DNA from: a virus
Length of the DNA: 42,632 nt
Reading direction: 5' to 3' (one strand)
IMG/VR virus record: IMGVR_UViG_3300045988_146228
Within the stretch, counting starts at the first letter, position 1. The number at the start of each line of letters is the position of its first letter. This document shows, one piece after another, positions 5,242 through 38,250 of the stretch. The notes under the pieces are model-generated. The model saw only the letters and a program-made list of their open reading frames with translations, ran no database searches and had not been told where the DNA came from. The position numbers and the translations under genes were made by a program.

Positions 5242-6486
5242 ATGGAATATGTACAGCTGAGCATGGATGAATACATCCAGAGTAAAAACGACATCAAAAA
5301 TAATCTTGGAGGTATCGTAAAAAGCTTTGTCCGGATCGGATGGCAGTTGACCAGGATTGACCGGTCGGGCGCTTATAAAAATGACGGATACAGCAGCATA
5401 GCCGAATTTGCGGCAGCAGAATATGGGATGAACAGGACCGGTGTCAGCCGTTTTATGACCGTATATGAAACATATTCTGCAGACGGGGATACACCGGAAC
5501 TGAAAGAACAGTACCGGGAATTTAAGTTCTCGCAGCTGACCGAACTCCTGCAGGTCCAGGAAGCAGACCGGCAGATGTTCACGCCGGAAGTAAAAAGGGA
5601 GGATATCAGAGAATTCCAGAGGTTTGAAAAAGAAAATGAATCAGATCCGGCCCGGCTGCTTGACTGGAAAGATGCAAAAAGCCCGGAAGAAAAGCTGAAA
5701 GCAACGATACAGGAGTTTTGCAGGGAGAATAAAGAGATCATTAATGCAGTGTATAGCTCAATCATGGAGCCAAAAGACCTGGCGGAGATGATCAGCCCGT
5801 CCGGCAGCAGGAGTTACCGGAAAGGCACCGTGTACATGATGTTTTATGAAGAATCAAAAGGGATCATGGTCAAGGTGTTCGGGGAGACACCGGTGGATAT
5901 CACGTATCGATATTTCCTGGATGTGGTGCACAGCCTGTTCGATGAGTACGATGCAGGGGCCCATACCTGGGAAAAATGCTTCGGGGTACTGCCAGACGAG
6001 GGGGCAACAGCCCAGAAACGGGAAGAACCTGTGGAACCGAAAATGCCAGAGTATAGCGGTGAAATCACCGGGAAGGTACACGATGATGTTTCAACCGAGA
6101 AGGTGATGGAAAAACCAGAGATTGCGCCGGCGCAACAGGAAGAACAGATCCCTGGACAAGACAGTATTGATCAGCATCCGGAATATATGCCAGAACCGGT
6201 GCAAGAACCAGATATCCCGAAGAAACCAGAAGATTCCGTACCGGAGATCCATAAAGAAGAACAGAAGTCCGACCCAGTACCGGAAAACAATGAAACTATT
6301 CCGGAAAAAGCAATAACCCGGAAAGAATACCTTGAAACGCTCACATTATACGGCTGGGCGGATTACGTGGCAGCAGCAATGCGGACCTTTGGAAGCATAC
6401 CATTCTCCAGATTGCGTGAGATCAGCTTCTGGGAAGAATGGCTGTGTGGAAAAGTGGACAAAAAAGGACGTCCATGGATTGAGTAA
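5242..6486 (+). CDS. Hypothetical early protein with an N-terminal HTH-like region and an acidic/Pro-rich linker
   Basis: AAGGAGG RBS; ...GYSSIAEFAAAEYGMNRTGVSRFMTVYETY...; PE/PV-rich low-complexity segment near aa 290-345. Confidence 0.75.
   Translation: MEYVQLSMDEYIQSKNDIKNNLGGIVKSFVRIGWQLTRIDRSGAYKNDGYSSIAEFAAAEYGMNRTGVSRFMTVYETYSADGDTPELKEQYREFKFSQLTELLQVQEADRQMFTPEVKREDIREFQRFEKENESDPARLLDWKDAKSPEEKLKATIQEFCRENKEIINAVYSSIMEPKDLAEMISPSGSRSYRKGTVYMMFYEESKGIMVKVFGETPVDITYRYFLDVVHSLFDEYDAGAHTWEKCFGVLPDEGATAQKREEPVEPKMPEYSGEITGKVHDDVSTEKVMEKPEIAPAQQEEQIPGQDSIDQHPEYMPEPVQEPDIPKKPEDSVPEIHKEEQKSDPVPENNETIPEKAITRKEYLETLTLYGWADYVAAAMRTFGSIPFSRLREISFWEEWLCGKVDKKGRPWIE
6122..6135. repeat. Palindrome TTGCGCCGGCGCAA, copy 2 (inside gene 5242..6486)
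   Basis: Exact 14-bp palindrome. Confidence 0.9.
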
Positions 6487-8035: not shown

Positions 8036-8444
8036 AACCTGTATCAACAACGATGATGGCCTTTGTGATCGCAGAGGAATCCTTGTAGAAGATGAAGATT
8101 TCTGTGAGCATCACTGGGCAGCAGGAAAGAAGGTCAGAATGAAACGACATGAGAAGAAGATGGACATCACACCAGAGCTGATGCTGTCAGCATATAACAC
8201 ACTGATTCAGGGATGTAAAAGCCAGCCGGCCAGTGAAGACGGAACCTGCAGCAGCTGCATCCTGTATCAGAACTGCCCAGGTACATCAAACCTTCTTCCG
8301 GAAGACTGGAAGGAGATACATTATCCATATTTGACAGGAAACACGATTCACTACATAAAGGCTGGTAAAGTCAAGCAGATTATATTTTCTAGCCGGGAAG
8401 ATGCAGAGGAAAGGCTCAGAGAGATGAAAGAAGGTGTGAAATGA
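8007..8444 (+). CDS. Hypothetical Cys-rich protein
   Basis: AGGAGG RBS then ATG 8007; MEKTMGNTCKTCINNDDGLCD... Confidence 0.6.
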   Translation: MEKTMGNTCKTCINNDDGLCDRRGILVEDEDFCEHHWAAGKKVRMKRHEKKMDITPELMLSAYNTLIQGCKSQPASEDGTCSSCILYQNCPGTSNLLPEDWKEIHYPYLTGNTIHYIKAGKVKQIIFSSREDAEERLREMKEGVK

Positions 8445-8623
8445 GCTACAAGAACAATGAAGGCTATCCAGATCCGACAGCTGGTAAAGCGGTCCGGTCA
8501 GCGGGCAGGATGCCGACACACATTTATAACGCCTTTTGTGTCCTGAATAATACGGCAGGCCTGCTAGGATTAGAGATTACAGGCATACGGGATCGAAAGA
8601 CAGGAAAAGAATGGAAGAAATAG
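8441..8623 (+). CDS. Hypothetical small protein
   Basis: ATGA overlap with the upstream gene; MSYKNNEGYPDPTAGKAV... Confidence 0.55.
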   Translation: MSYKNNEGYPDPTAGKAVRSAGRMPTHIYNAFCVLNNTAGLLGLEITGIRDRKTGKEWKK

Positions 8624-25754: not shown

Positions 25755-28700
25755 GTGTATCAGTCAACAGCAGAATTCGGAAACCTGGTACAGCAGGATT
25801 CCCGAACATTTAAGTGTCTGCTTACTTATGACAAGGTATCGATCACAAAGGTTAAGAGCATCAAGCTCACCGGAGGATCTGAGGCAGAAGATGATTTTTC
25901 CCTGGGATCAACGATGTCGCAGTATATCGAGGTAACGATTCCAGATGGCAACCTCCTGATCGAGGGAAAAGAGATCCTCCTGCAGATCGGGATGGACGTG
26001 AACGGTCTGACAGAATACATCCCGATGGGATACTTTACCGTAGGGAAGCCAAAGAAAGCGGACGATCAGATCACATTCACAGCTTACGACCGTATGATGA
26101 ACACAGAGCGGACGTTTTTCATGGATGGCACAACCACAAATACAGTGGCAGTACTGAAGAAGATTGCGGATATCACAGGTGTTCCTGTAGTGACATCCGG
26201 ATTAACTGCGATATCCATAAAAGTGCCGAAAGGATATAGTTGCAGGGAAGTGCTTTCCTACGTGGCCCAGCTTTATGGGGCGTTTGCGGTTTGCATCCGT
26301 AGAGGTCAGATCGAGCTGCATACCTATGTGGATTCAGATTATAAGGTAAAGACGAGCCGGTACTGGGGAAATTTTGAACATAATGATTATGCTTTTGATG
26401 TTTCAAAATTTGTATGTTTTACGGGACAAGATAAAAATGGAAAAAGCATATCAATCTTTTCGGGATCCGGAGCAAGGTCCGTGTCTTTTTCCAATCCGTT
26501 CATGACACAAACAGTCCTCAATAATATCCTGGCATCTTTCAAAAATTTCTCCTATATGCCAGGTACATTGAAAATGCTGGGAGATCCCCGACTGGATCCT
26601 TGGGATATCCTGACCGTAACAGATCTGTCTGGAAACACATATAAGGTTCCTATCATGAAACTGGATTGGGAATACGATGGCGGTCTTACATATTTAGTTG
26701 AAGCTGTCGGCCTGTCAGAAGAAGAAACCAACGCAGATTATAAAGGACCGCAGACAAAAGAAATGGAACGGTATTACGCACAGTTGGTAATGATTGACAG
26801 GGCGATGATCAACAAGCTAGATGTAGATACCGCGAACATCACATACGCTACGATCAAAAATTTGAGTGTAGTGGAAGAGAATGTACAAAAAATAAATGGA
26901 GAGGTTGGTAACTTCAAGGAACTGACCGCTGCGAATTTTACAGCGGCCAACGCAAAGATTGATGTCCTGGATGGAAATTACGCAAATATCAAAGTACTGC
27001 TTTCCGGAGGCGCTGGCATCGGGGATCTGCAGAACATTCACCTGACCTCACAGAATGCGGTCATTGACTCAGCTTTGATTCGATCAGCCGTGATGCAGAC
27101 GGTATCCGTAGCAGATCTTCTTGCTAGCACGATTTCAACAAATAAATTCCTGATAGCTTCTGATGACGGAGGCATCCGGATACAAGGAGCGACACAGCAG
27201 TGGTCTGACGAAGATGGTACGATCCGGATGCAGGCAGGCCGGGATGCGAATGGAGATTTCACCTTCTCCCTGTTCGATAAGACCGGAAAAGGCATCCTGA
27301 TTGATGCAACAGGCGTTAAACCTGATGCAATTACAGATGGCCTGATCGTCAACAAAATGGTCGCAGATAACGCGGGGATTGCCGGTTCCAAGCTGGACAT
27401 CCCGTCTGTGGTATCAGCAATCAATGACAGCTCGCAGACTATCAAGAGCAGCCGGATCTGGTTCGATGAACAGAATCAGTCGTTGAATCAGACGTATAGC
27501 CAGTTGAATCAGAACGTGACAGAAATCCGTTCCACAGCCTCATCAGCGGCCAGTAAGGCAGATGCGGCAAATGAGACGGCAGGAGCTGCTTCGAAGACAG
27601 CACAGCAGGCTCTGTCCGTACTTTCTGGAATATCCATACTGGACGCCATTGGAGCCGCATTGAATAACGATGCACACGTGGTCCATACAAACACAGATGG
27701 CTCAGGCGGGGACTATAGCGACTGTTTCTCAAAAATGACGGTATATCTCGGAGATACTGACGTATCTGATGACAGCGTTTTCTCAGTATCTACATCTGCA
27801 GGTGTAACCGGACACTGGGACGATGCAAGCAGGACATACTATGTTACAGCCATGAGCGCTGATAATGGATATGTTGACATTGATGCGTTGTACGGTACAG
27901 GAGCAAGATACCTGACTACACGAAAGGGATTAAGGCTCACAACCAGATCCGGGAAATATATCCTCGTACAGTCTGGCGGAGCACACATCCGGAAGCGTTT
28001 CAGCATCAGCAAGGCGAAGGACGGAAAGATCGGCCTGTCTTATGATCTGCATAGCTCCACGCTTGCAGTTCGAAAGCAGAAAGACGGAAAGACATTGATA
28101 CCGGCATCTATCACTTTCTCAGCAACGCAGAATGACAATGGACTGGTCAGGAGCTATTCCGGAAGATACAGCATCCAGGAGACAGAGGATGGAACGACGT
28201 ATACTCTCAAATACGTCTCGACATCTGATGAAATCCAGAAAATCTATACGCCCTCAAGCGTGAACGTAAAAGCAGTCAGATGCACTCTCTTATCTGCAGG
28301 AGGGGTGTCCGAGTTGGACACACAGACAGTGATCATCATTGCTGATGCGGAAGGCCTGACAGATGATATCAAAAAAGCTCAAGGAACTGCAGATCAGGCA
28401 AAAGAAGCTATTGTGACAACAAACCAGAATGTAGCGAACATAGAGACGAGTATGGAAGGTTTCCGGACGGAGCTGTCTGAGACCACAACAGATCTCCACG
28501 GTCTGACGGATAACACATTGTTATACAACGTGAAATACCACGATAACGGCGATGGCACGACCACCCTGAATGCAGCAGTGTACAAGAACGGAACCGATGT
28601 TACAAAAACATACCCGGTCAGATGGTATACCTGGAACAGGAAGACGGAATCCGGAGAAATTTATCTCGGATATGGATACAGCATTACGGTCAACAACTCC

Positions 28701-28829
28701 GACTACGAGTTTGGCGGCGTGTGCGTGGGAATATTCGCTACATATGACACTTTGAACCTTACGACAAGATCTGGAAAACAGCTTACAACCAGATCCGGAA
28801 AACATATCACAATTTGGAGGGAAAAATAA
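25755..28829 (+). CDS. Large tail tip / baseplate (Tal-like) protein with coiled-coil and repeated LTTRSGK motifs
   Basis: GTG after AAGGAGG; 1024 aa; N-terminal tail-endopeptidase-like region; LTTRKGLRLTTRSGK and LTTRSGKQLTTRSGK. Confidence 0.8.
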   Translation: MYQSTAEFGNLVQQDSRTFKCLLTYDKVSITKVKSIKLTGGSEAEDDFSLGSTMSQYIEVTIPDGNLLIEGKEILLQIGMDVNGLTEYIPMGYFTVGKPKKADDQITFTAYDRMMNTERTFFMDGTTTNTVAVLKKIADITGVPVVTSGLTAISIKVPKGYSCREVLSYVAQLYGAFAVCIRRGQIELHTYVDSDYKVKTSRYWGNFEHNDYAFDVSKFVCFTGQDKNGKSISIFSGSGARSVSFSNPFMTQTVLNNILASFKNFSYMPGTLKMLGDPRLDPWDILTVTDLSGNTYKVPIMKLDWEYDGGLTYLVEAVGLSEEETNADYKGPQTKEMERYYAQLVMIDRAMINKLDVDTANITYATIKNLSVVEENVQKINGEVGNFKELTAANFTAANAKIDVLDGNYANIKVLLSGGAGIGDLQNIHLTSQNAVIDSALIRSAVMQTVSVADLLASTISTNKFLIASDDGGIRIQGATQQWSDEDGTIRMQAGRDANGDFTFSLFDKTGKGILIDATGVKPDAITDGLIVNKMVADNAGIAGSKLDIPSVVSAINDSSQTIKSSRIWFDEQNQSLNQTYSQLNQNVTEIRSTASSAASKADAANETAGAASKTAQQALSVLSGISILDAIGAALNNDAHVVHTNTDGSGGDYSDCFSKMTVYLGDTDVSDDSVFSVSTSAGVTGHWDDASRTYYVTAMSADNGYVDIDALYGTGARYLTTRKGLRLTTRSGKYILVQSGGAHIRKRFSISKAKDGKIGLSYDLHSSTLAVRKQKDGKTLIPASITFSATQNDNGLVRSYSGRYSIQETEDGTTYTLKYVSTSDEIQKIYTPSSVNVKAVRCTLLSAGGVSELDTQTVIIIADAEGLTDDIKKAQGTADQAKEAIVTTNQNVANIETSMEGFRTELSETTTDLHGLTDNTLLYNVKYHDNGDGTTTLNAAVYKNGTDVTKTYPVRWYTWNRKTESGEIYLGYGYSITVNNSDYEFGGVCVGIFATYDTLNLTTRSGKQLTTRSGKHITIWREK

Positions 28830-29284
28830 TGGCAGATCAGAATATAACAGCATTACCAGTATCAGCAACACCAGCATCATCAGACCAGTTACTGCTGGTA
28901 GGAGCGACCGAAGAGAAGCTGATTGACTATGACAAGCTCGCAGATGCGATACTCAATAAATTGACATCAAAAAACTTCAGTCTGGACCAGGGAACCATGC
29001 CTTTGGTAAGCGCTCTTAATCAATTAAATAGTAAGCCCTTTCTGAGGTACGAAAAAGCATTTGGCGAATCGCTTACTATCAAAAATGTACGTGCTGCCAC
29101 TCATGGATTAATCATAATCGAGAAAGCGATGGTTGTTTTCTACCTCGGAGGTTCTATCAATATTGGTTATACCGTGACCACATCAGCACTTCCGGACGGT
29201 ATCACTGTCAGCAATTCGGATAGGACCGTAACAATAAAATCGACAAAAACTCAGATGATCACATGCTTTTATGCTTTTTTATAA
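28829..29284 (+). CDS. Tail-fibre tip protein (151 aa): expression locus of the shufflon, constant aa 1-68 and variable aa 69-151
   Basis: GGAGGG RBS, ATG 28829 overlapping the upstream stop; fibre-type N-terminus MADQNITALPVSATPASSDQLLLVG; internal core AAATAGTAA at 29026-29034. Confidence 0.85.
   Translation: MADQNITALPVSATPASSDQLLLVGATEEKLIDYDKLADAILNKLTSKNFSLDQGTMPLVSALNQLNSKPFLRYEKAFGESLTIKNVRAATHGLIIIEKAMVVFYLGGSINIGYTVTTSALPDGITVSNSDRTVTIKSTKTQMITCFYAFL
29024..29038 (+). repeat. Shufflon crossover site A (TTAAATAGTAAGCCC) inside the expressed fibre gene
   Basis: The 9-nt core AAATAGTAA is shared with six inverted copies downstream and lies in phase AAT-AGT-AAx (Asn-Ser-x). Confidence 0.8.
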
Positions 29285-29301
29285 TTTTCCTCTTCCCATT
29301 T
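29283..29301 (+). repeat. Left copy of the perfect 19-bp inverted repeat AATTTTCCTCTTCCCATTT bracketing the recombinase gene
   Basis: Exact reverse complement found at 30492-30510. Confidence 0.9.
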
Positions 29302-29372
29302 AATTGGTTTGTGAACAGCGCACTTCTTATGGCAAAATAAAGGTAAAATAAAGTCATAGGAGGTGCACTTTT

Positions 29373-30371
29373 TTGACAAAAATCGAAATGATACAATCGA
29401 GAATAGTGGAGAGGATGCAGGATATACTCACAAACGAACAACTACAACATCTGGAGAACGTTCTGGCGATAGAATTTCATGGAGTTGAGGTTAGGGAAGA
29501 GTGTACGCAGCTGGTTACTTCGGAAATTCACTGGCAGAAGATACTTCGGACATTCATTGCATCGAAACGAATTGAGAACTGCAGTCAGGGAACTCTTGAG
29601 CGTTACAATGACTGTGTGACAAAGTTGGTCACCACGCTGAATAAGCGGCTGCAGGACGTCACTACAAATGACATTCGCTATTATCTGGCAATGTATCAAG
29701 AACAACGGAAGATTTCAATGAGCTACATGGATACAATCAGACGGTATCTAAGCAGCTTCTTCGCCTGGATATCGGATGAGGGCTATATCAGCCGGAATCC
29801 TATGCGGCGATTGCGAAAAATAAAAGTACCGCGGACAATCAAAAAGCCTTTCACACAGGCTGAAATGGAGCATCTGCGGTGTAACGCAGAGTGCCAGAGA
29901 GATATTGCAATCATGGCATTTCTGTACAGTACGGCGGCCAGAATCGGTGAAGTTGTAAGACTGAACCGGAAAGATATTGACTGGAGCAATAAAGAGGTGA
30001 TCATATACGGAGAAAAGGGCAAGAAAGAGAGAAGAGTGTATCTGACAGATGACTGTGCATATCACCTGCACAAGTATCTTTTGTCCAGGGATGATACGAA
30101 TCCGGCATTGTTCGTATCGAACAAACGTCCGCACACACGGCTGGGAAAGCAGGCTATTCAGTCCATGCTCCGCACTCTGGGGCAAAAGACAGAGATTCAT
30201 GCTCATCCGCACAAGTTTCGCAGGACCTTGCTCACGGATGCTGGAAACAGAGGAATCCCACTACAAGAAATCCAGATGTATGCGGGGCACCAGAAACCAG
30301 ATACGACAATGATGTACGTTACTGTCAGTGAAGAAAATGTCCGGGCATCGTTCAGACGATATATAGCCTGA
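29373..30371 (+). CDS. Tyrosine site-specific recombinase (XerC/D-Rci-like), candidate shufflon invertase
   Basis: AGGAGGTG RBS then TTG 29373; catalytic signature STAARIGEV (Arg), HPHKFRRT (HxxR), AGHQKPDTTMMYV (His, Tyr). Confidence 0.9.
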   Translation: MTKIEMIQSRIVERMQDILTNEQLQHLENVLAIEFHGVEVREECTQLVTSEIHWQKILRTFIASKRIENCSQGTLERYNDCVTKLVTTLNKRLQDVTTNDIRYYLAMYQEQRKISMSYMDTIRRYLSSFFAWISDEGYISRNPMRRLRKIKVPRTIKKPFTQAEMEHLRCNAECQRDIAIMAFLYSTAARIGEVVRLNRKDIDWSNKEVIIYGEKGKKERRVYLTDDCAYHLHKYLLSRDDTNPALFVSNKRPHTRLGKQAIQSMLRTLGQKTEIHAHPHKFRRTLLTDAGNRGIPLQEIQMYAGHQKPDTTMMYVTVSEENVRASFRRYIA

Positions 30372-30398
30372 ATTGTTCTAAAAAATATGATTTTTTGA

Positions 30399-30424
30399 AG
30401 CTGGCAGAAATGGCAGCTTTTTTG
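30399..30424 (+). terminator. Terminator after the recombinase gene
   Basis: AGCTGGCA-GAAA-TGGCAGCT (one mismatch) followed by TTTTTT. Confidence 0.6.
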
Positions 30425-30491
30425 CGATGTATGAAAATGTGCAAAGACAGGAGGGAAGACAAGAGAATAATCGGAGAGGCTGTTTTACACA

Positions 30492-30510
30492 AAATGGGAA
30501 GAGGAAAATT
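30492..30510 (-). repeat. Right copy (inverted) of the 19-bp repeat, 5 nt downstream of the cassette 1 stop
   Basis: AAATGGGAAGAGGAAAATT is the reverse complement of 29283-29301. Confidence 0.9.
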
Positions 30511-30515
30511 TCTTT

Positions 30516-30767
30516 TTATATGATAATCTCGAACGAATCATTTTTGTACCGAAATGCAGTGACGGTCGGCTTAAAATAGTCAACATATACGCCAATGGCA
30601 TCTCTTGATTCTGGAACGGACAATATGATCATATATGGGTGTCCTCCATTCGTTGTTGCCGCAAAGACGCTTGAACCTTGTATCATAATAGCTTCTTTCT
30701 CAGCGTTCATGGCACTGATAATATCGTCATACGCACGCCAGTTACGCTCTCTGAGCCGGTTACTATT
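30516..30767 (-). other. Silent fibre C-terminal cassette 1 (83 codons, NSNRLRERNWRAYDD...FEIII)
   Basis: Open frame in phase with the AAT-AGT of site S1; no own start or RBS at the junction; includes ORF 30516..30710. Confidence 0.75.
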
Positions 30768-30770
30768 TTA
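30756..30770 (-). repeat. Shufflon site S1 (TAAAATAGTAACCGG on the minus strand)
   Basis: Core at 30760-30768, inverted relative to site A. Confidence 0.8.
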
Positions 30771-31025
30771 TTGAGCATTAAAATACTTCCACTTACTCCA
30801 ATTCTCCGTTCCGCCTTTTCGACGAATTGCAATTCTATCTGCCGAAAATGAAAAAGCGATCATTGCATCAAAGTTACTGGAACCCAATTTCATTCGAATG
30901 ACTGTAACAGCATTGGCACCGCCAAGATTGTCGGGAAGATTGGTACTACCTGCCATGGCTGAAAAAATCATTTTTTCAGGAGGATTGTCCAGATCATATA
31001 TACCGCCAGCCGGCAGGTTACTATT
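30768..31025 (-). other. Silent cassette 2 (85 codons, NSNLPAGGIYDLDNPPEK...WSKWKYFNAQ)
   Basis: In phase with S2; its stop TAA is the left arm of S1; includes ORF 30768..30971. Confidence 0.75.
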
Positions 31026-31028
31026 TAA
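31014..31028 (-). repeat. Shufflon site S2 (TTAAATAGTAACCTG)
   Basis: Core at 31018-31026. Confidence 0.8.
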
Positions 31029-31317
31029 GCATCAGCATCTTAATGCCTCCCCATATGGTTTCGCTGGCGCTTATCGTCAATGTAGATGTGTCATCACTGT
31101 ATGTACCCGAAAAAGTCCTTTTTGCCACAAAGTCTGCAATTTTAATAAAATTTACTGTCCGTTTTTCCGATGCAACATCAACAAAGACAATGTACATAAA
31201 TCCATTATATCGTGAAGTCGCTCCGTACATGAGAAACGATGCATAGGTGTAAGTATTAAGCTCAATATTTACAGAAAATGTTGAAAGATTTCGAATATCA
31301 ATGAAGACATTACTATT
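31021..31317 (-). other. Silent cassette 3 (98 codons, NSNVFIDIRNLSTF...SETIWGGIKMLMLK)
   Basis: In phase with S3; its stop TAG lies inside the S2 core; includes ORF 31021..31230. Confidence 0.75.
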
Positions 31318-31320
31318 TAA
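31306..31320 (-). repeat. Shufflon site S3 (TTAAATAGTAATGTC)
   Basis: Core at 31310-31318. Confidence 0.8.
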
Positions 31321-31613
31321 CTTATAGTCACAGGATCAAAGCAGATTAAAAGTGCTGTGCTCCAGGGAATAAGTGTCACTTTCAATGTTGCCGAAGAAGT
31401 ATCAAGTACGGGTGGTGCTGCGTATTCAGATTTTTTTGATATTTCTGTCGCTCCCGTCTGCTTTCCTGTTATGTATAAAGAGGTAATGCAGTTGTTATCA
31501 ATTAGTAGAAACGAAGTCATATGATTGTTTACACTATTCCACTTTACGCTTACTGTTTTGGTAGAGCCATCACTATGTATAATATAACTATCGGCCTTGA
31601 ACCGCTTACTATT
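31317..31613 (-). other. Silent cassette 4 (98 codons, NSKRFKADSYIIHSDG...CFDPVTIS)
   Basis: In phase with S4; its stop TAA overlaps S3; includes ORF 31317..31520. Confidence 0.75.
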
Positions 31614-31616
31614 TTA
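31602..31616 (-). repeat. Shufflon site S4 (TAAAATAGTAAGCGG)
   Basis: Core at 31606-31614. Confidence 0.8.
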
Positions 31617-31863
31617 TGTAGAACACGACAATATCGAGTTCTGTATTTACCAATCGATCACCAGCATCGTTTTTTGCCACGACAAAAGCATACGTTTTGT
31701 ACGAATATAGTTCGGTGTGTATATTTCTACTCCCGGCAGAATCAAATATTTTTACGGCAATAATATTTTTTATAGACGATCCACTGATAAAATTATTTGT
31801 TGCAATTTCGCCTGTTTTACTTGTTGTTATTTTTCCAATGTAAACAGCAACACGGTTACTATT
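31609..31863 (-). other. Silent cassette 5 (84 codons, NSNRVAVYIGKITTSK...DIVVFYIK)
   Basis: In phase with S5; its stop TAG lies inside the S4 core; part of ORF 31609..31926. Confidence 0.75.
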
Positions 31864-31866
31864 TTG
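31852..31866 (-). repeat. Shufflon site S5 (CAAAATAGTAACCGT)
   Basis: Core at 31856-31864. Confidence 0.8.
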
Positions 31867-31868
31867 TT

Positions 31869-32153
31869 TTAAGACAATTGTATTTTTTTCCACTCGCCCC
31901 AAGTAGTAGATTTGGTTTTCATCCATATAGTTTCAGAGTAAGAAAAAAGCACAACAATTCCGTATTTGCTGCCGGATTTGCTTTGATATGCAAGTAGAAA
32001 TCCGCCTTTGCCATCCGGAGAACCTTGATCGATACTTACTGTGCTTTGTATTGTGAATAACCTAATTTCTCCATAGTCACATTTTATAAGTATATCTTCA
32101 GCAAGATCAGAAGCAGAAGTTATGTTTTCTGAGCTCCTGAGCCGGTTACTATT
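31869..32153 (-). other. Silent cassette 6 (94 codons, NSNRLRSSENITSASD...WGEWKKIQLS)
   Basis: In phase with S6; its stop lies 3 nt before the S5 site; part of ORF 31869..32162. Confidence 0.75.
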
Positions 32154-32156
32154 TAA
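32142..32156 (-). repeat. Shufflon site S6 (TTAAATAGTAACCGG)
   Basis: Core at 32146-32154; 10 nt from the RBS of the next fibre gene. Confidence 0.8.
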
Positions 32157-32181
32157 TCTCACAGAAAGGAGGTGAGAAAAA

Positions 32182-34332
32182 ATGAGATTTCAGAAAGAAG
32201 TGAATATTTTTGCGCCGGATGCGATTCTAAAGCGATTTCAGGCGAATGAGACAAATTTTTCTGTTGTCAAAGGCAAGATAGAGGCCTTGATCAGCGAAAG
32301 CGAAATCCTCGAACTGCAGAACAGCAAAGTAACAATGTACAGCAAACTCGCTGATGTGAAGCTTACTGTACATGGACTGGAGCAGACCTATACAGATATG
32401 GCATCGAAATATGATTCCGTAACCGGAAAGTATACGGATCTTGATGCCAAAGTTGCTGAGTATAAGTCAACTGTAGACGGATTCTCCTCAAATTTATCTC
32501 AGGTCAAATCAAATCTGAAGGATAACTATAGTACGACTACGACCATGAATACCGCGATACAGGGAAAAATAGATGAACTTTCACTGTCTGTATCTAATAC
32601 ATACGCCACAAGAGATGCGGTAGGAGCACTTGAAACATGGAAAAGCGAAGCTTCGCAGAAGATCACTGACAGCGCTATCGTATCAACAGTCACATCGAGC
32701 ACGGAATGGACAAAAAAGGCTGACAAAGCATCACTGATCAGTCAGATCAATCAGTCGGCAGAACAGATCAAGATCCGTGCAAGCATCATAGACCTGCAGG
32801 GCAACATCAGTATCACGGATATATCTAACGACGCTATGAATATTATCAAAAATTATAGCATCACAGCGCTATCAGATGCGAAAAAGTATACAGATGACTG
32901 TGATGTACTGGTTCTTAAAGACTCACAGGACTATACACGGACGTATACGCTAGCGGAAATCGGAAAGCTAGAAGCGTCTGGTGGAAACCTTGTGAAAGGA
33001 TATCGGTTATCAGCGGATAATGTAAAAACGTACTGGAATACAGTCGGGACCGTGAAAACAGGCCAGAATGATCCAGATGGTGGGAAAAATGCGGTAGTGA
33101 TTACTGCCGATGCAGACAACTGCATTCTTGCTGCAAAGCGGGACACAAACGCTGTACTCAATGCCACCGGACGATATACTATAACATTCTGGGCAAAAGC
33201 GTCAAAAGCACAGTCTATAGCATTCTCTTTCAATAAAGTGCGAGAAAGCATAGCGCTGACCACATCGTGGAAAAAGTTTTCATTCGTGAAAGATGTCACG
33301 AGCGTGGAAGAAACAGGAAGCCTGATCATGTTTGGCGGCGGGAATACGATTAGCACTGGCGATGGGAACATATACATCTACCGTCCAGATGTTCGGCATG
33401 GATATACATCAGAAGATGTTTTTAACCTTCTGACTAATAATGGAAAAATCGAGGGTATGTACATGACCGGTGGCAAGTTGTACTGGAACGGAGCTTACAT
33501 CAAGTCCAAGTCTATAACCACAGCTGCACTTGCGGCCGATAGTGTAACCGCGGAAAAAATTAAAGTAGACGATTTGTACTCCCTGAAAGCAAGCATAGCC
33601 GGATTCAAAATCTCATCAGATACGATATCACATCAGAGTACTACAAAACCTGCAAGTGGCATCGGACAGACTTATTACGACACATATTTTTCATCCAAGA
33701 ATAAACGTCTTACTTTTCGAAAGGGTCCCGGAACATCTGATTATATGACGTTCAGCATAAATGGTCTAAGAACCAGCAACTGGAAATGCTTAGATCTGAT
33801 ATCGGATGCGGATACAGAGGCTGGTGGTGATTTTACCAGCGGAAACCATCACTCTTTAGGATGCACAAATATTTACGGAGCACTATATGTTGCAGAAGGC
33901 CTCAGAGTTGCCGGAACTAAACAGGCAGTTCGCCAAACAGAAAACTACGGAGAAAAAGGAGTTTACTGCTACGAAACTCCAACACCACTGTTTGGAGATA
34001 TCGGATCCGGAGAGATATCAGAAGATGGAAAATGTTATATTGACATCGAAGATATCCTGAAAGAGATGATCAACACAGGAATACAGTACTATGTTTTTTT
34101 ACAGAAGCGCGGAGAAGGAGATCTGTATGTTTCGGAATGCCGTCAGGATTATTTTTTAGTAACCGGTACACCTGGTCTTAGATTTTTTTGGGAATTGAAA
34201 GCAAAACAGAAAGGCTATGAGTACAACCGGTATGAAGGCGAGGATAGAATGGTAGGATTTAAACAGATAGCATATGACGATGAGTACCTGAACGATATAG
34301 AAAAACTCATCGAGGAAAGAGAGGGAATATGA
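32182..34332 (+). CDS. Tail fibre / receptor-binding protein (coiled-coil N-terminus, CBM-like central domain, conserved C-terminal domain)
   Basis: AAAGGAGGTG RBS; 716 aa; heptad-rich aa 30-220; ...YCYETPTPLFGDIGSGEISEDGKCYIDIED... C-terminal module common in Firmicutes prophage fibres. Confidence 0.8.
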   Translation: MRFQKEVNIFAPDAILKRFQANETNFSVVKGKIEALISESEILELQNSKVTMYSKLADVKLTVHGLEQTYTDMASKYDSVTGKYTDLDAKVAEYKSTVDGFSSNLSQVKSNLKDNYSTTTTMNTAIQGKIDELSLSVSNTYATRDAVGALETWKSEASQKITDSAIVSTVTSSTEWTKKADKASLISQINQSAEQIKIRASIIDLQGNISITDISNDAMNIIKNYSITALSDAKKYTDDCDVLVLKDSQDYTRTYTLAEIGKLEASGGNLVKGYRLSADNVKTYWNTVGTVKTGQNDPDGGKNAVVITADADNCILAAKRDTNAVLNATGRYTITFWAKASKAQSIAFSFNKVRESIALTTSWKKFSFVKDVTSVEETGSLIMFGGGNTISTGDGNIYIYRPDVRHGYTSEDVFNLLTNNGKIEGMYMTGGKLYWNGAYIKSKSITTAALAADSVTAEKIKVDDLYSLKASIAGFKISSDTISHQSTTKPASGIGQTYYDTYFSSKNKRLTFRKGPGTSDYMTFSINGLRTSNWKCLDLISDADTEAGGDFTSGNHHSLGCTNIYGALYVAEGLRVAGTKQAVRQTENYGEKGVYCYETPTPLFGDIGSGEISEDGKCYIDIEDILKEMINTGIQYYVFLQKRGEGDLYVSECRQDYFLVTGTPGLRFFWELKAKQKGYEYNRYEGEDRMVGFKQIAYDDEYLNDIEKLIEEREGI

Positions 34333-34526
34333 AAGTATTAACAAGCTTTATAGCGCTGAATACAGGAGAGGGAGAAAGAATCTCTTTTACCTATTCGGAA
34401 GTAGCTGAAGACGGAACAATCATCAGTCAGAACAACAAGAAAAACTTCCTGGTACTCAATAAAGAGCTGAAAAATCATATCAGTGAAATCAAAAAGTACA
34501 TCGAAGATACACACCTGACAGAATAG
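34329..34526 (+). CDS. Small protein after the fibre gene (XkdX-like position)
   Basis: ATGA overlap with the fibre gene, 65 aa. Confidence 0.55.
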   Translation: MKVLTSFIALNTGEGERISFTYSEVAEDGTIISQNNKKNFLVLNKELKNHISEIKKYIEDTHLTE

Positions 34527-34551
34527 GAGATGAGAATATGAAAATCAGAGC

Positions 34552-34575
34552 AGAGCCGGAAGGCTCTTATTTTTA
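34552..34575 (+). terminator. Rho-independent terminator
   Basis: AGAGCC-GGAA-GGCTCT followed by TATTTTTAT. Confidence 0.65.
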
Positions 34576-34584
34576 TACTTAAAA

Positions 34585-34598
34585 TTGCGCCGGCGCAA
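34585..34598. repeat. Palindrome TTGCGCCGGCGCAA, copy 4 (intergenic, 20 nt upstream of the holin ATG; 16-bp palindrome here)
   Basis: Exact palindrome located between a terminator and an RBS. Confidence 0.9.
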
Positions 34599-34618
34599 TA
34601 CCGGAGAAAGGGAAAATA

Positions 34619-35092
34619 ATGAAAGAAAATCACATCAAAGCAATTTTTACAGCTATCTTTGCACTGATCAGTTCCGTACTGGGGGTACTGACAGTGCCGG
34701 TCCTCCTTATGGTGGCCTGCAATGTTCTCGACTATGCCACAGGTCTTATGGCATCTACATACAGAGCTGAGGATATCAATTCATACAAAAGCATTCGTGG
34801 AATCATGAAAAAAGTGAGCATGTGGCTCCTGGTGATTGTAGGAGCAATCATTGATCAGCTTCTTTTATATGCTTCCCAGACTGCAGGCATCACTTTACCA
34901 TTTACATTCCTGGTGGCCTGCATTGTGGCAATCTGGATTATTTGCAACGAGATCATTAGTATCCTGGAGAATATCAAAGATATGGGAGTAACAATTCCAA
35001 CATTTCTGATTCCGCTTGTAACACATGTAAAGTCTCAGGTGGAAGATAAAGTTAATATCAATCCAGAAAACGAAGATTCAGAGGGCGAGTGA
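34619..35092 (+). CDS. Holin (phage_holin_4_1 / LL-H-TcdE-like)
   Basis: Three to four TM segments; ...VLDYATGLMAS...KSIRGIMKKVSMWLLVIVGAIID...; directly upstream of the endolysin gene. Confidence 0.85.
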   Translation: MKENHIKAIFTAIFALISSVLGVLTVPVLLMVACNVLDYATGLMASTYRAEDINSYKSIRGIMKKVSMWLLVIVGAIIDQLLLYASQTAGITLPFTFLVACIVAIWIICNEIISILENIKDMGVTIPTFLIPLVTHVKSQVEDKVNINPENEDSEGE

Positions 35093-35114
35093 TCGTCCTC
35101 TTAGGAGGAAGAAC

Positions 35115-36416
35115 ATGTTAAAGATCATGGGAAAATCACAGGCCAGCATTGACCAGATGAGGGCCTACATTAAAAAAGTAAATCCGCAGGTGTCCGATTC
35201 GGTCACAAAGATGATTCCGTTATATATCACAGAAGGAGCTGCAGAAGGAGTTCGCGGAGATATTGCCTTCGCTCAGAGCTGCCTGGAGACAGGAAACTTC
35301 ACATTTGCAGGTTCAGCAGTAACTTTCGATCAGAATAACCTCTGCGGTCTTGGTGTAACTAAAACCGGTATGAAGGGCAACAGCTTCAGAACACCGGCAG
35401 AAGGCATCCGTGCACAGATCCAGCACCTGCAGGCCTACGCATCCACAGATCGGCTGAAGAACCGTTGCGTGGATCCACGCTATACATACGTCAACAGAGG
35501 CTGTGCGCCTTATGTGGAGTGGCTTGGGATCCAGGAAAATCCCAAAGGACAGGGCTGGGCATCCGGAAAGAACTATGGACAGAAAATCATCAATATCCTG
35601 AACGGCATATTATCTATTAAGGCATCAAAGAAGGCATTAAAAACAGAAAAGGAGAGTGTTACCATGAACATTATCAAAATGATCAGCAAGAAGAACTGCT
35701 ATATCGGCCAGAACAAACCTGCTTACATCGTGATCCACGAGACAGACAACTGGAGCAAGGGCGCAGGTGCAAAAGCCCATGCTACAGCCATGAAGAATGG
35801 CAATCTGGCCGGAACCGTGCACTACTATGTAGATTCCAAGTCTGTTTACCAGACACTCGATCACAATGACGGAGCCTGGGCCGTGGGAGATGGAAAAGGA
35901 AAATACGGTATCACAAACCGTAACTCTATCAACATCGAGATTTGTGTAAATCCGGAAACAGACTACTATAAAGCGGTAGATAAGGCGGAGCAGCTGGCAG
36001 CACAGCTTCTGAAGCAGTATGGATGGGGAACAGATCGCCTGAAACGCCACTATGATGCTTCCAGGAAGAACTGCCCGCGCCGGATCCAGGCAGAAGGACG
36101 CTGGCCGGAATTTGTAAAAAAGACTGTAGCATATATGAAGGGAGCAACGACAGTGAAGAATACGACAACAAAGAACACCGTAACATTAACCGACAAGATT
36201 GAAGTCCAGTTCCCGGTTATTCAGAAAGGCAGCAAAGGAACGGCTGTGTCCATGCTGCAGGCTATGCTCGGAGTAAAGGTGGATGGTGATTTCGGAAACG
36301 ATACAGATACCTCGCTGAAAGTATTTCAGAAAAATGTAAAGCTCACAGCAGACGGGATTTGCGGAAAAGACACTTGGACAAAGGTGATTGAACACATGAA
36401 GGTCAACACAAAATAA
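35115..36416 (+). CDS. Endolysin: N-terminal glucosaminidase, central Amidase_2, C-terminal PG_binding_1
   Basis: FAQSCLETGNF (glucosaminidase); IVIHETDN...NSINIEICVN...RKNCPRRI (amidase_2); GSKGTAVSMLQAMLGVKVDGDFGNDT...LTADGICGKDTW (PG binding). Confidence 0.9.
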   Translation: MLKIMGKSQASIDQMRAYIKKVNPQVSDSVTKMIPLYITEGAAEGVRGDIAFAQSCLETGNFTFAGSAVTFDQNNLCGLGVTKTGMKGNSFRTPAEGIRAQIQHLQAYASTDRLKNRCVDPRYTYVNRGCAPYVEWLGIQENPKGQGWASGKNYGQKIINILNGILSIKASKKALKTEKESVTMNIIKMISKKNCYIGQNKPAYIVIHETDNWSKGAGAKAHATAMKNGNLAGTVHYYVDSKSVYQTLDHNDGAWAVGDGKGKYGITNRNSINIEICVNPETDYYKAVDKAEQLAAQLLKQYGWGTDRLKRHYDASRKNCPRRIQAEGRWPEFVKKTVAYMKGATTVKNTTTKNTVTLTDKIEVQFPVIQKGSKGTAVSMLQAMLGVKVDGDFGNDTDTSLKVFQKNVKLTADGICGKDTWTKVIEHMKVNTK

Positions 36417-36514: not shown

Positions 36515-38083
36515 TTACTTTTGCTGGATTTTCGGATAAATATCTAAAGTAAAAGAGATGTCATCGCCATTTTTCCATGTATTTTTTGCGTTTTTAGTAT
36601 AAACAGCCTTTTCTATCAATTCACGGAGAAATCGGTTCTTTGTAGAGGTATCCCACGTCCAGTAATTTGCGAGAAGATCCTCGCACTTGGGAATAAAAGA
36701 GGAACGTTGAAACTGAAGTTCCTGTTCATGTTCAATTTCTTGCTTCAGAGAAAGAATTACTGCATCGCAGGCAGACAGCTCGGCAGCAGTAGCACGGGAG
36801 CGTTCAAGAAATTCTTCCGTGGAGTAAATTCCCTGTTCAAGAAGATCGTACTGCCTTTGTTTTCTTTTCTTTAAAATATCAATTTCTTTTAATTTTCCTT
36901 GAATCATTTTTTCTCCTTCAGAAATAGAAAGAGAATACTCCTGATCGGAAACACTGTTATTTAGTCTGTAGCCATCTACAAGCTCTTGGATTCCGTCAAG
37001 AAGAGCTTTTTCAACAAGAGGAAGCTTGCTGCTTATATTGCTACAAGAACTGTATGGGCACCGGATCAGATCACCCTGTCTTCCGTTAGGGGATTTACGA
37101 GTCATAACATGATCACATTTTCCACAACGAACAATACCGGCAAGAGGGTTACGAAGAACATGCAAAGAGTTAAGCGGCCGTGCAGGATTTTTGTTTACGA
37201 TATCTTGAGCTTGCTGAAAGAGTTCCCTTGATACAATAGCAGGATGCCTGCCTTTGACAAGAATATAATCCTGAGCGAAAGGACGGGAGATAGTTATTTG
37301 CCCATCCTTTATATGCTTTACTGCTTTCCGACTGTTCCATCGTATCATTCCTTCATATACTGGATTTCTGAGGATTGCCTGCACACGAGAAATGGTCCAT
37401 AGGCCACCATCCATGGTCTTGATTCCGGAATCATTTAATTTACGGCAGATCTTAGCCATTCCAATTCGTTCGCCGGATACTCCATGGACATATAAATTGA
37501 ATATAAGCTTGACAATCTCTGCCTGGTCAGGAACAGGCTGCAATGTCCATCCTTTTTCACCAACAAGTTTTACACGGGAATATCCATAAGGCGGCTTACT
37601 GCCGCAATATTTTCCTTCTTTTGCGGAAGATTCGCGACCCGCAGTGAGACGGCGGCGAATGGTCTTGTATTCACGCCGGGACATAAAAAGTCCGAATTCA
37701 AAATACTCTTCGTCGTATTCGTTGTTTGGATCGTAAGTTTTAAGTGGAGTAATGATTAATGTGTTGGAGTATTGGAAAGATCTGGCAACAACACCCTGGT
37801 CAATGGTATCGCCCCTGGCCAGACGTTCCACTTCAACAACAAGGACGCCATCCCACATACCGGATTCAACTTCCCGAAGAAGTTGTTGCATAACAGGTCT
37901 GGCAGAAATCGTCTCATCGGATACGATCTCTTTATAGATTGCTCCTACATTATAGCCACGCTTTTTGGCAAGATCCAGCAGAATCCGCTCATGTCGGGCG
38001 AGAGTTTCGCCTTCGCCCCTGGCTTCAGCCTCCCGATCAGCACGGGACTTACGCAGGTAGATACATACATTTAAAAGTTCCAT
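36515..38083 (-). CDS. int: Large serine recombinase (phage integrase)
   Basis: Start MELLNVCIYLRKSRADRE after GAGGTG; resolvase catalytic domain, recombinase domain, zinc ribbon (CGKCDH...CPYSSC), C-terminal coiled-coil. Confidence 0.9.
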   Translation of the reverse strand: MELLNVCIYLRKSRADREAEARGEGETLARHERILLDLAKKRGYNVGAIYKEIVSDETISARPVMQQLLREVESGMWDGVLVVEVERLARGDTIDQGVVARSFQYSNTLIITPLKTYDPNNEYDEEYFEFGLFMSRREYKTIRRRLTAGRESSAKEGKYCGSKPPYGYSRVKLVGEKGWTLQPVPDQAEIVKLIFNLYVHGVSGERIGMAKICRKLNDSGIKTMDGGLWTISRVQAILRNPVYEGMIRWNSRKAVKHIKDGQITISRPFAQDYILVKGRHPAIVSRELFQQAQDIVNKNPARPLNSLHVLRNPLAGIVRCGKCDHVMTRKSPNGRQGDLIRCPYSSCSNISSKLPLVEKALLDGIQELVDGYRLNNSVSDQEYSLSISEGEKMIQGKLKEIDILKKRKQRQYDLLEQGIYSTEEFLERSRATAAELSACDAVILSLKQEIEHEQELQFQRSSFIPKCEDLLANYWTWDTSTKNRFLRELIEKAVYTKNAKNTWKNGDDISFTLDIYPKIQQK

Positions 38084-38250
38084 AATATCACCTCGGTTTA
38101 AAATATGTAAAAATGGGTACAAAAATAACGACCACACAAACGTTCTGATTGTGCAGCCGCTCCGAAGATGATACAATATTTTTGCGAAATGAGGTATCTC
38201 TTCGGAGATCCACCACCGTCCCGGTATTGGCGTACTGGGGCGGTTTTTAT

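Follow-up and report, generated by a model that had tools for sequence, protein, structure and literature searches.

The 42,632-nucleotide (nt) viral sequence IMGVR_UViG_3300045988_146228 from IMG/VR, the whole of which is referred to below as the window, carries between two tail-protein genes a locus that is read here as a multi-site inversion shufflon. It would swap the C-terminal part of a small tail protein among seven alternatives by means of a tyrosine recombinase, R, encoded inside the invertible DNA, and a probability of about 85% is given to this reading. The same arrangement had been proposed from a sequence-only reading of the window, and it is now supported by natural isomers and by the occurrence of both R orientations in related loci. 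The evidence is comparative and comprises the recombination sites, the reading frames that follow them, the isomers, the two orientations of R, flips of R alone, and derivatives that have lost R. As in shufflons generally, there are more than two sites, in both orientations, a dedicated recombinase at the locus, and isomers, which were found between samples. On these grounds the shufflon is almost certainly functional, and switching would be ongoing within populations.

Recombination sites and cassettes in the window

The core sequence AAATAGTAA has seven exact matches in the window, one on the + strand at 29026 and six on the − strand at 30760, 31018, 31310, 31606, 31856 and 32146. These are exactly the copies, coordinates and strands listed in the sequence-only reading. 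Shuffled versions of the window contained a mean of 0.34 copies, and none of 100 shuffles reached seven. Cores with one mismatch are at chance level (19 in total, 12 of them beyond the exact copies, versus 13.4 expected).

The + strand copy belongs to site A (29023..29035, + strand; ATTAAATAGTAAG), the sole site in the '>' orientation. Its invariant core at 29026-29034 falls within Leu66-Asn67-Ser68-Lys69 of the variable gene, an open reading frame (ORF) of 151 amino acids (aa) at 28829-29284, and the earlier assignment of Asn67-Ser68-Lys69 to the core in this expressed gene was confirmed. The gene consists of a constant region C, codons 1-66, that makes up the N-terminal domain (28829..29026, + strand; defined from the ORF listing, AlphaFold2 (AF2) and Foldseek), and cassette a (29027..29284, + strand), the currently expressed C-terminal domain of 85 aa, which is all-beta in the model.

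The six silent cassettes are on the − strand; their coordinates include the stop codon. Cassette c1 (83 aa; 30516-30767) begins at site S1 with its core at 30760-30768. Cassette c2 (85 aa; 30768-31025; S2 core 31018-31026) has a TAA stop codon that overlaps S1, and cassette c3 (98 aa; 31021-31317; S3 core 31310-31318) ends with the TAG inside S2. The stop codon of cassette c4 (98 aa; 31317-31613; S4 core 31606-31614) overlaps S3, and that of cassette c5 (84 aa; 31609-31863; S5 core 31856-31864) is the TAG inside S4. Cassette c6 (94 aa; 31869-32153) adjoins the terminal site S6, the core of which (32146-32154) lies 27 nt before the start of the downstream tail-protein gene D. All minus-strand cassettes share the frame phase A-AAT-AGT-AAx, and the six in-phase frames of 83-98 codons described earlier were recovered together with the peptides quoted from them. 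The cassettes directly abut one another, and the next site provides the stop codon of four of the six silent ones. The site of ~13 base pairs (bp) supplies stop codons in both non-fusion frames, TAG in the core and TAA with positions -2/-1.

The junctions bear on whether the minus-strand segments could instead be independent small paralogous genes, in which the 9-mer reflects an Asn-Ser-Asn coding motif. ORFs of 64-105 aa can be called on the minus strand from ATG or GTG codons inside or ahead of the cassettes. A GTG precedes c6 by three codons and an in-frame ATG precedes c5 by 21 codons; a Shine-Dalgarno (SD) sequence accompanies neither of them. An in-frame stop codon directly precedes the NS codons in c1 and c4, and one is located three codons upstream in c2 and seven codons upstream in c3 with no start codon between. 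As the sequence-only reading had it, no start codon with an SD sequence was found at any junction. This, the abutting of cassettes that end in the stop codons of the next site, the natural fusion of the same cassettes to the constant region (see below), and an AGT-to-AGC change present in all core copies of one locus make independent genes extremely improbable. Most cassettes, moreover, are without sequence similarity to one another.

As judged by hhalign, only c2 and c6 are related (probability 75%, E 2.6e-5), and no homology was detectable for any other cassette pair. The shared motifs reported previously, SETIW in c3 and c6 and W-x-x-WK in c2 and c6, are present. The proposal built on them, that the cassettes are diverged homologues of one tip, finds support at the sequence level for the c2-c6 pair and none for the others.

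Natural isomers and related loci

A set of 79 IMG/VR loci with R homologues was taken, together with contigs found through specific proteins, and the six predicted fusions of the constant region to a cassette were built and looked up by exact sequence. The exact 160-aa constant+c6 fusion is on record as protein P0121 of contig L001 (SRR22877710). In this contig, window positions 28067-29034 are followed by the reverse complement of 32157-31849 (c6) and then of 31615-31515 (c4), and both junctions, A to S6 and S5 to S4, are at cores. When the constant+c6 protein served as the query of a homology search, over 100 full-length proteins of that type were listed, 59-100% identical. Constant+c4 fusions occur in L027 and L035, a constant+c3 fusion was found as the truncated protein P0136, and constant+c5 fusions as the truncated proteins P0129 and P0134; no constant+c1 fusion was seen among the related loci and proteins. 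The predicted joining of the constant part to the cassettes by recombination of A with Sn is thus borne out by the exact c6 fusion and, in relatives, by fusions to c3, c4 and c5.

Further searches were made with parts of the gene. A homology search with the 68-aa constant region returned 56 proteins of 43-119 aa, all shorter than 151 aa, with broken or odd junctions. A metagenome scan with the constant region and the core gave three contigs. Scans of IMG/VR with the core plus the start of c1, c2, c3 or c5 gave more arrangements and no new constant-region fusions; the c2 scan gave none at all.

Related phage genomes were found to carry the core motif beside a tyrosine recombinase in about 100 loci, which is the scope of the comparisons that follow. 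In these, cassettes 93-100% identical to those of the window are found rearranged and re-oriented, and the breakpoints are at cores where mapped; such rearrangement of cassettes 97-100% identical extends to over 100 related loci. Arrangements in relatives include c1-c3-c5-D, c3-c5-c4-D and D(rev)-c4-a-R. Cassette a (96-100% identical) is silent or differently placed in L016, L100, L102 and L111. Cassette c1 is present at 95-100% identity in L014, L017/L106, L090 and L107, and c2 at 96-97% identity in L100 and L102, at another position and in another orientation. One identical constant+c6 protein, P0178, is encoded on contigs from different samples that differ downstream of it: the order is 6-x-2-5-a-R(reversed) in L100/L103, 6-5-... 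in L101 and 6-y-5-2-...-a in L102, with cassettes 96-100% identical to those of the window.

The orientation of the sites follows one rule. Of the 415 core copies located no more than 4.5 kb from R, 402 obey it, being in the '>' orientation to the left of R and in the '<' orientation to its right. R itself runs in the direction of the constant region in 26 loci and against it in nine. The sites are split between the left and right sides of R as 1+6 in the window, 1+13 in L037 and 2+8 in L052, with at least seven on the left in L014; relatives thus have from two to at least 14 sites (L037), all converging on R.

The consensus of 293 unique sites is A-T-W-AAATAGTAA-S. Information content is limited to positions -3 to +11, and no 12-bp arm is conserved. 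One clade, in which R is ~76% identical, has AAATAGCAA instead, in 9-10 copies. This is an AGT-to-AGC change that is synonymous and common to all copies of the locus, which indicates that the constraint acts on DNA. The pool of cassettes is large: the 249 unique ones that are 60 aa or longer (median length 88 aa) fall into at least 87 clusters that could not be linked by BLAST.

In the contigs encoding P0178, the shufflon module is 96-100% identical to that of the window, whereas the flanking proteins T and D are only 75-78% identical. Hence, the module has been exchanged between phage backbones. Part of the L100-L104 lineage has a different Dit-Tal module. Contig ends also fall at the sites: 17 of the 32 ends located within 300 nt beyond the last site are no more than 30 nt from a site, which is suggestive of heterogeneity.

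The same data can be set against the possibility that the array is a fossil and that the loci differ through occasional inter-phage mosaicism rather than ongoing inversion driven by R. All arrangement evidence comes from different samples, frozen versions without R exist, and the occurrence of modules 97-100% identical in backbones 75-78% identical means that exchange between phages does take place. However, the breakpoints fall within identities of 9-13 bp, too short for homologous recombination; RecA-type recombination needs a minimal pairing length above this. Mosaicism also leaves unaccounted for the convergent rule obeyed by 402 of 415 sites, the catalytic set of R that is intact across clades of 61-100% identity, the synonymous core variant common to all copies of a locus, and the contigs that share one identical protein while differing in cassette order and that break at sites. 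A fossil array is therefore considered unlikely.

The tyrosine recombinase R

R is a protein of 332 aa with a TTG start codon, encoded at 29373..30371 on the + strand, inside the invertible DNA. It has Pfam matches to Phage_integrase (4.7e-30) and Phage_int_SAM_4. The Pfam search thus confirmed the complete tyrosine recombinase gene at 29373-30371 and, as a separate enzyme, the large serine recombinase noted earlier. Against PDB, R matched the XerC-like structure 4a8e with an E value of 1.6e-26, and structures of XerA and XerD align as well, from residue ~58-68 to residue ~325. The positions of the catalytic Arg, Lys, His-x-x-Arg, His and Tyr all align with those of the Xer structures. No arm-type DNA-binding domain was detected by the Pfam search in residues 1-57. 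The best NCBIfam model is XerA, with 199.8 bits, under the cutoff of 220.

Among annotated proteins, those closest to R (40-42% identity) are recombinases from Type I restriction-modification (R-M) loci on Lactobacillales plasmids, where they are located among inverted hsdS fragments. Given these nearest relatives, R by descent looks like an invertase of the hsdS-shufflon type that was recruited by a phage. Its earlier description as Rci-like was not established; the family and structure matches are to XerA, XerC and XerD, and the nearest annotated relatives belong to hsdS loci.

INPHARED phage records contained no R homologue above 41% identity. Two cultured phages of Clostridia, Terrisporobacter phage TPELB_ph1 (L095) and Clostridium phage phiCp-D (L096), encode a distant homologue (28-29% identity) between the last tail gene and the holin gene, in addition to another integrase. 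A quick scan of TPELB_ph1 and phiCp-D gave no convincing repeat system.

The large serine recombinase (553 aa; 36515..38176, − strand) has the Pfam domains Resolvase, Recombinase and Zn_ribbon_recom and is the presumed prophage integrase. It is the sole protein in the window with a Resolvase domain and lies ~4.4 kb from the shufflon. No small serine invertase of the Resolvase plus HTH type was found in the window beside the invertible segment.

An inner inverted repeat and flipping of R alone

R is flanked by a second pair of sequences, an inner inverted repeat of 19 nt that the sequence-only reading had missed. The left copy, AATTTTCCTCTTCCCATTT, is at 29283..29301 and is 100% complementary to the right copy, AAATGGGAAGAGGAAAATT, at 30492..30510. 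When the left copy and its flank are read as the reverse complement, the sequence is CAATTAAATGGGAAG, similar to that of site A, CAATTAAATAGTAAG; the repeat contains a core-like sequence, AAATGGGAA as compared with AAATAGTAA. Both copies point away from R. The repeat keeps its position: across most of the loci it lies 55-79 nt ahead of the R start codon and 106-130 nt beyond the stop codon, and the two copies change together between recombinase clades.

In five independent assemblies, L005, L011, L023, L099 and L100/L103, which come from different assemblers, R alone is flipped with the junction exactly in the inner repeat, and several contigs end exactly at 29301. Inversions at the outer sites always leave the 5' side of R next to cassette a. 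Loci in which a reversed R follows cassette a are nevertheless present, and R is therefore taken to flip alone at the inner sites. Most simply, R would flip its own gene there by its own action, and the same enzyme would then serve both the outer and the inner class of sites. The two differences between the cores would keep the two classes from recombining with each other. Extra copies of AAATGGGAA in L100 and L102 were considered as sites and rejected as coding coincidences (DGKWEAW).

Signals for the control of R expression

The leader of R contains a hairpin (29320..29366, + strand) in which GCACTTCTTATGGC (29320-29333) pairs with GTCATAGGAGGTGC (29353-29366), sequestering the SD sequence AGGAGG at 29358-29363; the minimum free energy of the leader is -23.1 kcal/mol. 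Unique leaders from relatives, 50 in number and spanning 28-100% R identity, were folded one by one, and in 44 of them at least six of the seven SD nucleotides are paired, which in shuffled leaders is almost never the case. Between clades the SD and anti-SD sequences change in a compensatory manner. RNAalifold gave no structure for the recombinase leaders because MAFFT had misaligned the clades. Pairing of the SD was seen even in the distant R homologue of Clostridium phage phiCp-D. From these folding predictions, a conserved hairpin masks the ribosome-binding site of R and probably keeps the translation of R low.

Downstream of R, a ViennaRNA fold revealed a terminator-like hairpin followed by a T-run (30397..30426, + strand), which a simple terminator scanner did not report. 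This hairpin could block late read-through to the tail and lysis genes, and would not do so when R is flipped.

Collapsed and irregular forms

Two kinds of collapsed locus were found. In L092 and L093 (junctions at ~6190-6270), the constant region is joined between CAATTAAAT and GGGAAGAGGAAAATT directly to a '<' array of silent cassettes, the R gene is absent, and the product is truncated to 87 aa. A widespread lineage without R (L113-L118; junctions at ~8440-8520) has the gene for T, a constant+a gene, a spacer of 59 nt, and the gene for D. Remains of the inner repeat and the terminal site are still present in the spacer. This lineage includes Blautia massiliensis GCA_013305005.1 and a contig of 291 kb. 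The existence of such forms indicates that the 151-aa protein is a regular component of the tail module and points to Blautia as the likely host of the window phage. The forms themselves appear to be rare cross-class or other deletions. A contig from a metagenome-assembled genome that was retrieved in the genome scan for R (L012) is labelled Eggerthellaceae; the bin label was held to be unreliable because the contig is ~80% identical to the window.

In L067 and L025 the same cassette is found on both sides of R, in L067 as a perfect inverted repeat of 229 nt. This duplication or conversion is unexplained by simple inversion.

These irregular forms are the material for a different mechanism, in which most switching would be due not to reciprocal inversion but to deletion, or to gene conversion that draws on a library of silent cassettes in the manner of pilin-type antigenic variation. 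To the cassettes duplicated around R and the derivatives deleted for R can be added L003, which is without c3 between c2 and c4, L001, in which c4 directly follows c6, and L002, which ends in an S2-to-S1 junction, as from a circle or a tandem copy. The orders in L001 and L003 can, however, be reached by inversions if the cassettes form two stacks, as described below. Cassettes in related loci are relocated and re-oriented, not copied, and R flips along with them; no machinery of the recA type or for gene conversion accompanies the locus. Deletion or conversion as the main route is thus very unlikely.

Tail-module context and the variable protein

The window is the genome of a temperate gut phage of siphovirus type, probably one of Blautia/Lachnospiraceae. 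It also encodes a terminase, a portal protein, a major head protein and a tape measure protein (TMP), and the gene order is TMP ... T - variable gene - D - holin - endolysin. Positions 1-6687 of L004 (ena:ERZ27261786:k99_95784) match window positions 28598-35284, such that the window resembles a rotated copy of L004; this fits an assembly that is circular or circularly permuted.

The upstream tail protein T (1024 aa; 25755..28829, + strand) is encoded outside the invertible DNA, and its stop codon overlaps the start of the variable gene. The N-terminal 430 aa of T match PHROG tail-protein and host-range/adsorption families, and in another phage backbone the gene at the same position encodes a Prophage_tail (Tal) protein and follows one for an SPP1_Dit protein. 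T has its LTTRSGK motif doubled at two places, YLTTRKGLRLTTRSGKYI near residue 700 and NLTTRSGKQLTTRSGKHI at the C-terminus, the second being encoded by a 24-nt tandem repeat at window positions 28758-28805, just upstream of the variable gene. The downstream tail protein D (716 aa; 32182..34332, + strand) forms the fixed right border of the shufflon. Residues 408-688 of D match PHROG tail-protein families, and D is kept beside the terminal site in relatives.

The variable protein has 1807 relatives in the databases, and no family model from Pfam, PHROG or NCBIfam matches or names it. The AF2 model of the expressed 151-aa form has a predicted local distance difference test (pLDDT) score of 85 and shows, in this order, a small N-terminal domain, a helix (residues 59-68) the end of which coincides with the recombination junction, and an all-beta domain. 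In both fusions that were modelled, constant+a and constant+c6, the constant part adopts the same confident fold with a pLDDT of 82-90. A Foldseek search of BFVD matched the first ~100 residues to the N-terminal domains of tailspike and fibre proteins, with E values of 2.6e-4 to 1.6e-3 and a query-normalised template-modelling score of ~0.4. The name tail fibre used in the sequence-only reading is only approximate: the gene is located between those of two tail proteins, its predicted N-terminal domain resembles those of tailspikes and fibres, and no family model names the product. From its gene position and anchor-like predicted fold, a role of the 151-aa protein in host recognition is plausible, and the cassette variants would then change host range.

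Proposed mechanism and its standing

In the proposed mechanism, the armless XerA/XerC-like R would pair one '>' site with one '<' site and invert the DNA between them. As all sites point toward R, every inversion would include the R gene. The cassettes would therefore form two stacks, one to the left and one to the right of R, the inner parts of which are exchanged by each inversion. Whichever cassette comes to lie next to site A would be joined in the correct frame to the constant 66-residue N-terminal domain, the fusion point being codons 66-69, where the predicted helix ends. The window would represent the isomer with one cassette on the left (a, expressed) and six on the right. By derivation, every arrangement seen, including those in L001 (6 beside 4) and L003 (2 beside 4), is reachable by inversions alone. 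With R central between convergent stacks, recombination of directly repeated outer sites could delete cassettes but not R. As a second tier, the inner pair of core-like repeats would let the R gene flip alone, and the hairpin over the ribosome-binding site would limit the translation of R.

Several points weigh against the shufflon as proposed. The cassettes received no family assignment from Pfam, PHROG or NCBIfam. In the AF2 model of constant+c6, the cassette has a pLDDT of 38-49 and is unreliable, which leaves a common receptor-binding fold unproven, and a Foldseek search of PDB with the model of the variable protein gave no significant match (best E 4.8e-3). Exact chimeras of the window's own constant region with c1-c5 were absent from the exact look-up. 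The evidence from isomers is between samples, and mixtures of strains could also break contigs at cassette borders. A conserved site of ~13 bp is very short for the substrate of a predicted tyrosine recombinase, as these enzymes usually need two binding arms. Finally, in the orientation of the window, the terminator-like hairpin lies between the variable gene and the gene for D, and the late transcription of D is left unexplained.

A wider proposal can be advanced tentatively, namely that loci of this kind make up a distinct and portable class of two-tier shufflon, with R as the pivot, self-toggling of R, a hairpin over its ribosome-binding site, at least 87 cassette families, mobility between Lachnospiraceae phage backbones, and host-range plasticity. 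If so, the flip of R would toggle its own expression and possibly the read-through to downstream tail and lysis genes. In abundant phages of gut Firmicutes, the shufflon could then be one of the chief causes of host-range plasticity and assembly breaks.

Significance

Host-range switching in gut Firmicutes phages is poorly understood and, in the literature found, is credited mainly to diversity-generating retroelements (DGRs; e.g. 10.64898/2026.01.26.701711). The locus would add to these a second, combinatorial mechanism. It is common in public data, with about 1,800 related proteins and 79 IMG/VR loci, and its cassette repertoire is large. It also offers rules that can be tested: the site doubles as a source of stop codons, the central R is safe from deletion between outer sites, and R may regulate its own gene. 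Loci of this type break short-read assemblies and confuse gene callers, and many of the corresponding database proteins are truncated fusions. The natural library of cassettes would supply ready-made parts with which to retarget phages that infect Blautia and related bacteria.

Comparison with known systems

Phage DNA inversion that exchanges the C-terminus of a tail fibre is known from Mu Gin, P1 Cin and p15B Min, the last being a multi-segment system. These are small serine invertases that act on 26-bp sites with a Fis-dependent enhancer and change host range. In the window, by contrast, the only serine recombinase is the 553-aa enzyme of integrase type.

The R64/IncI shufflon (Rci, sfx, pilV) resembles the locus in that one tyrosine recombinase performs multiple inversions at asymmetric sites and a constant N-terminus of a surface-recognition protein is joined to alternative C-terminal segments. 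It belongs to a plasmid pilus system with rci outside the invertible segments, whereas here a phage tail is concerned and R is inside. The sfx sites have a 7-bp core and a conserved 12-bp arm. No such arm is present here, where only ~13 bp are conserved in the 293 unique sites.

Phase-variable Type I R-M hsdS inversion loci of Firmicutes, such as the pneumococcal ivr/SpnD39III, likewise combine an expressed gene with silent partial copies and short in-frame repeats. Their target is the DNA-specificity subunit of a defence system and they have far fewer cassettes, whereas the target here is a virion protein.

The closest parallel is the Rin shufflon, described in prophages of Bifidobacterium breve/longum by Mavrich et al. 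in 2018 (PMC6109161) and in clade 1 prophages of Eggerthella lenta in 2022 (PMC8778435). Since Rin is already a phage shufflon of receptor-binding proteins with a tyrosine invertase, the earlier claim that no described phage system has a fibre shufflon of this kind fails. Among the papers searched, none describes the present Lachnospiraceae shufflon.

The likeness to Rin extends to several features. In both, a tyrosine recombinase without an arm-binding domain is encoded by the phage separately from its integrase, and short asymmetric repeats (11 bp and 8 bp in Rin) occur within the expressed gene and ahead of every cassette. One of several dissimilar C-terminal cassettes of ~95-100 aa is joined to a constant N-terminus, the locus is part of the distal tail module of gut prophages, and the evidence is likewise mainly comparative.

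The differences concern architecture and sequence. In Rin the recombinase gene is at one end of the array, whereas here it is central between convergent arrays, as in all of the related loci examined, and would invert with every event. The cores of the Rin sites (rix), TTCCCTAACCC and ttccgtat, are unrelated to AAATAGTAA. The constant part is 168 aa long in Rin and 66 aa here, and Rin has five cassettes as compared with seven in the window and at least 14 sites in a relative (L037). The host phylum is Actinomycetota for Rin and Bacillota (Blautia) here. An inner repeat for self-flipping and a leader that sequesters the SD sequence are unreported for Rin and both present here. The locus is therefore an architecturally distinct relative of Rin, the principle itself being not new.

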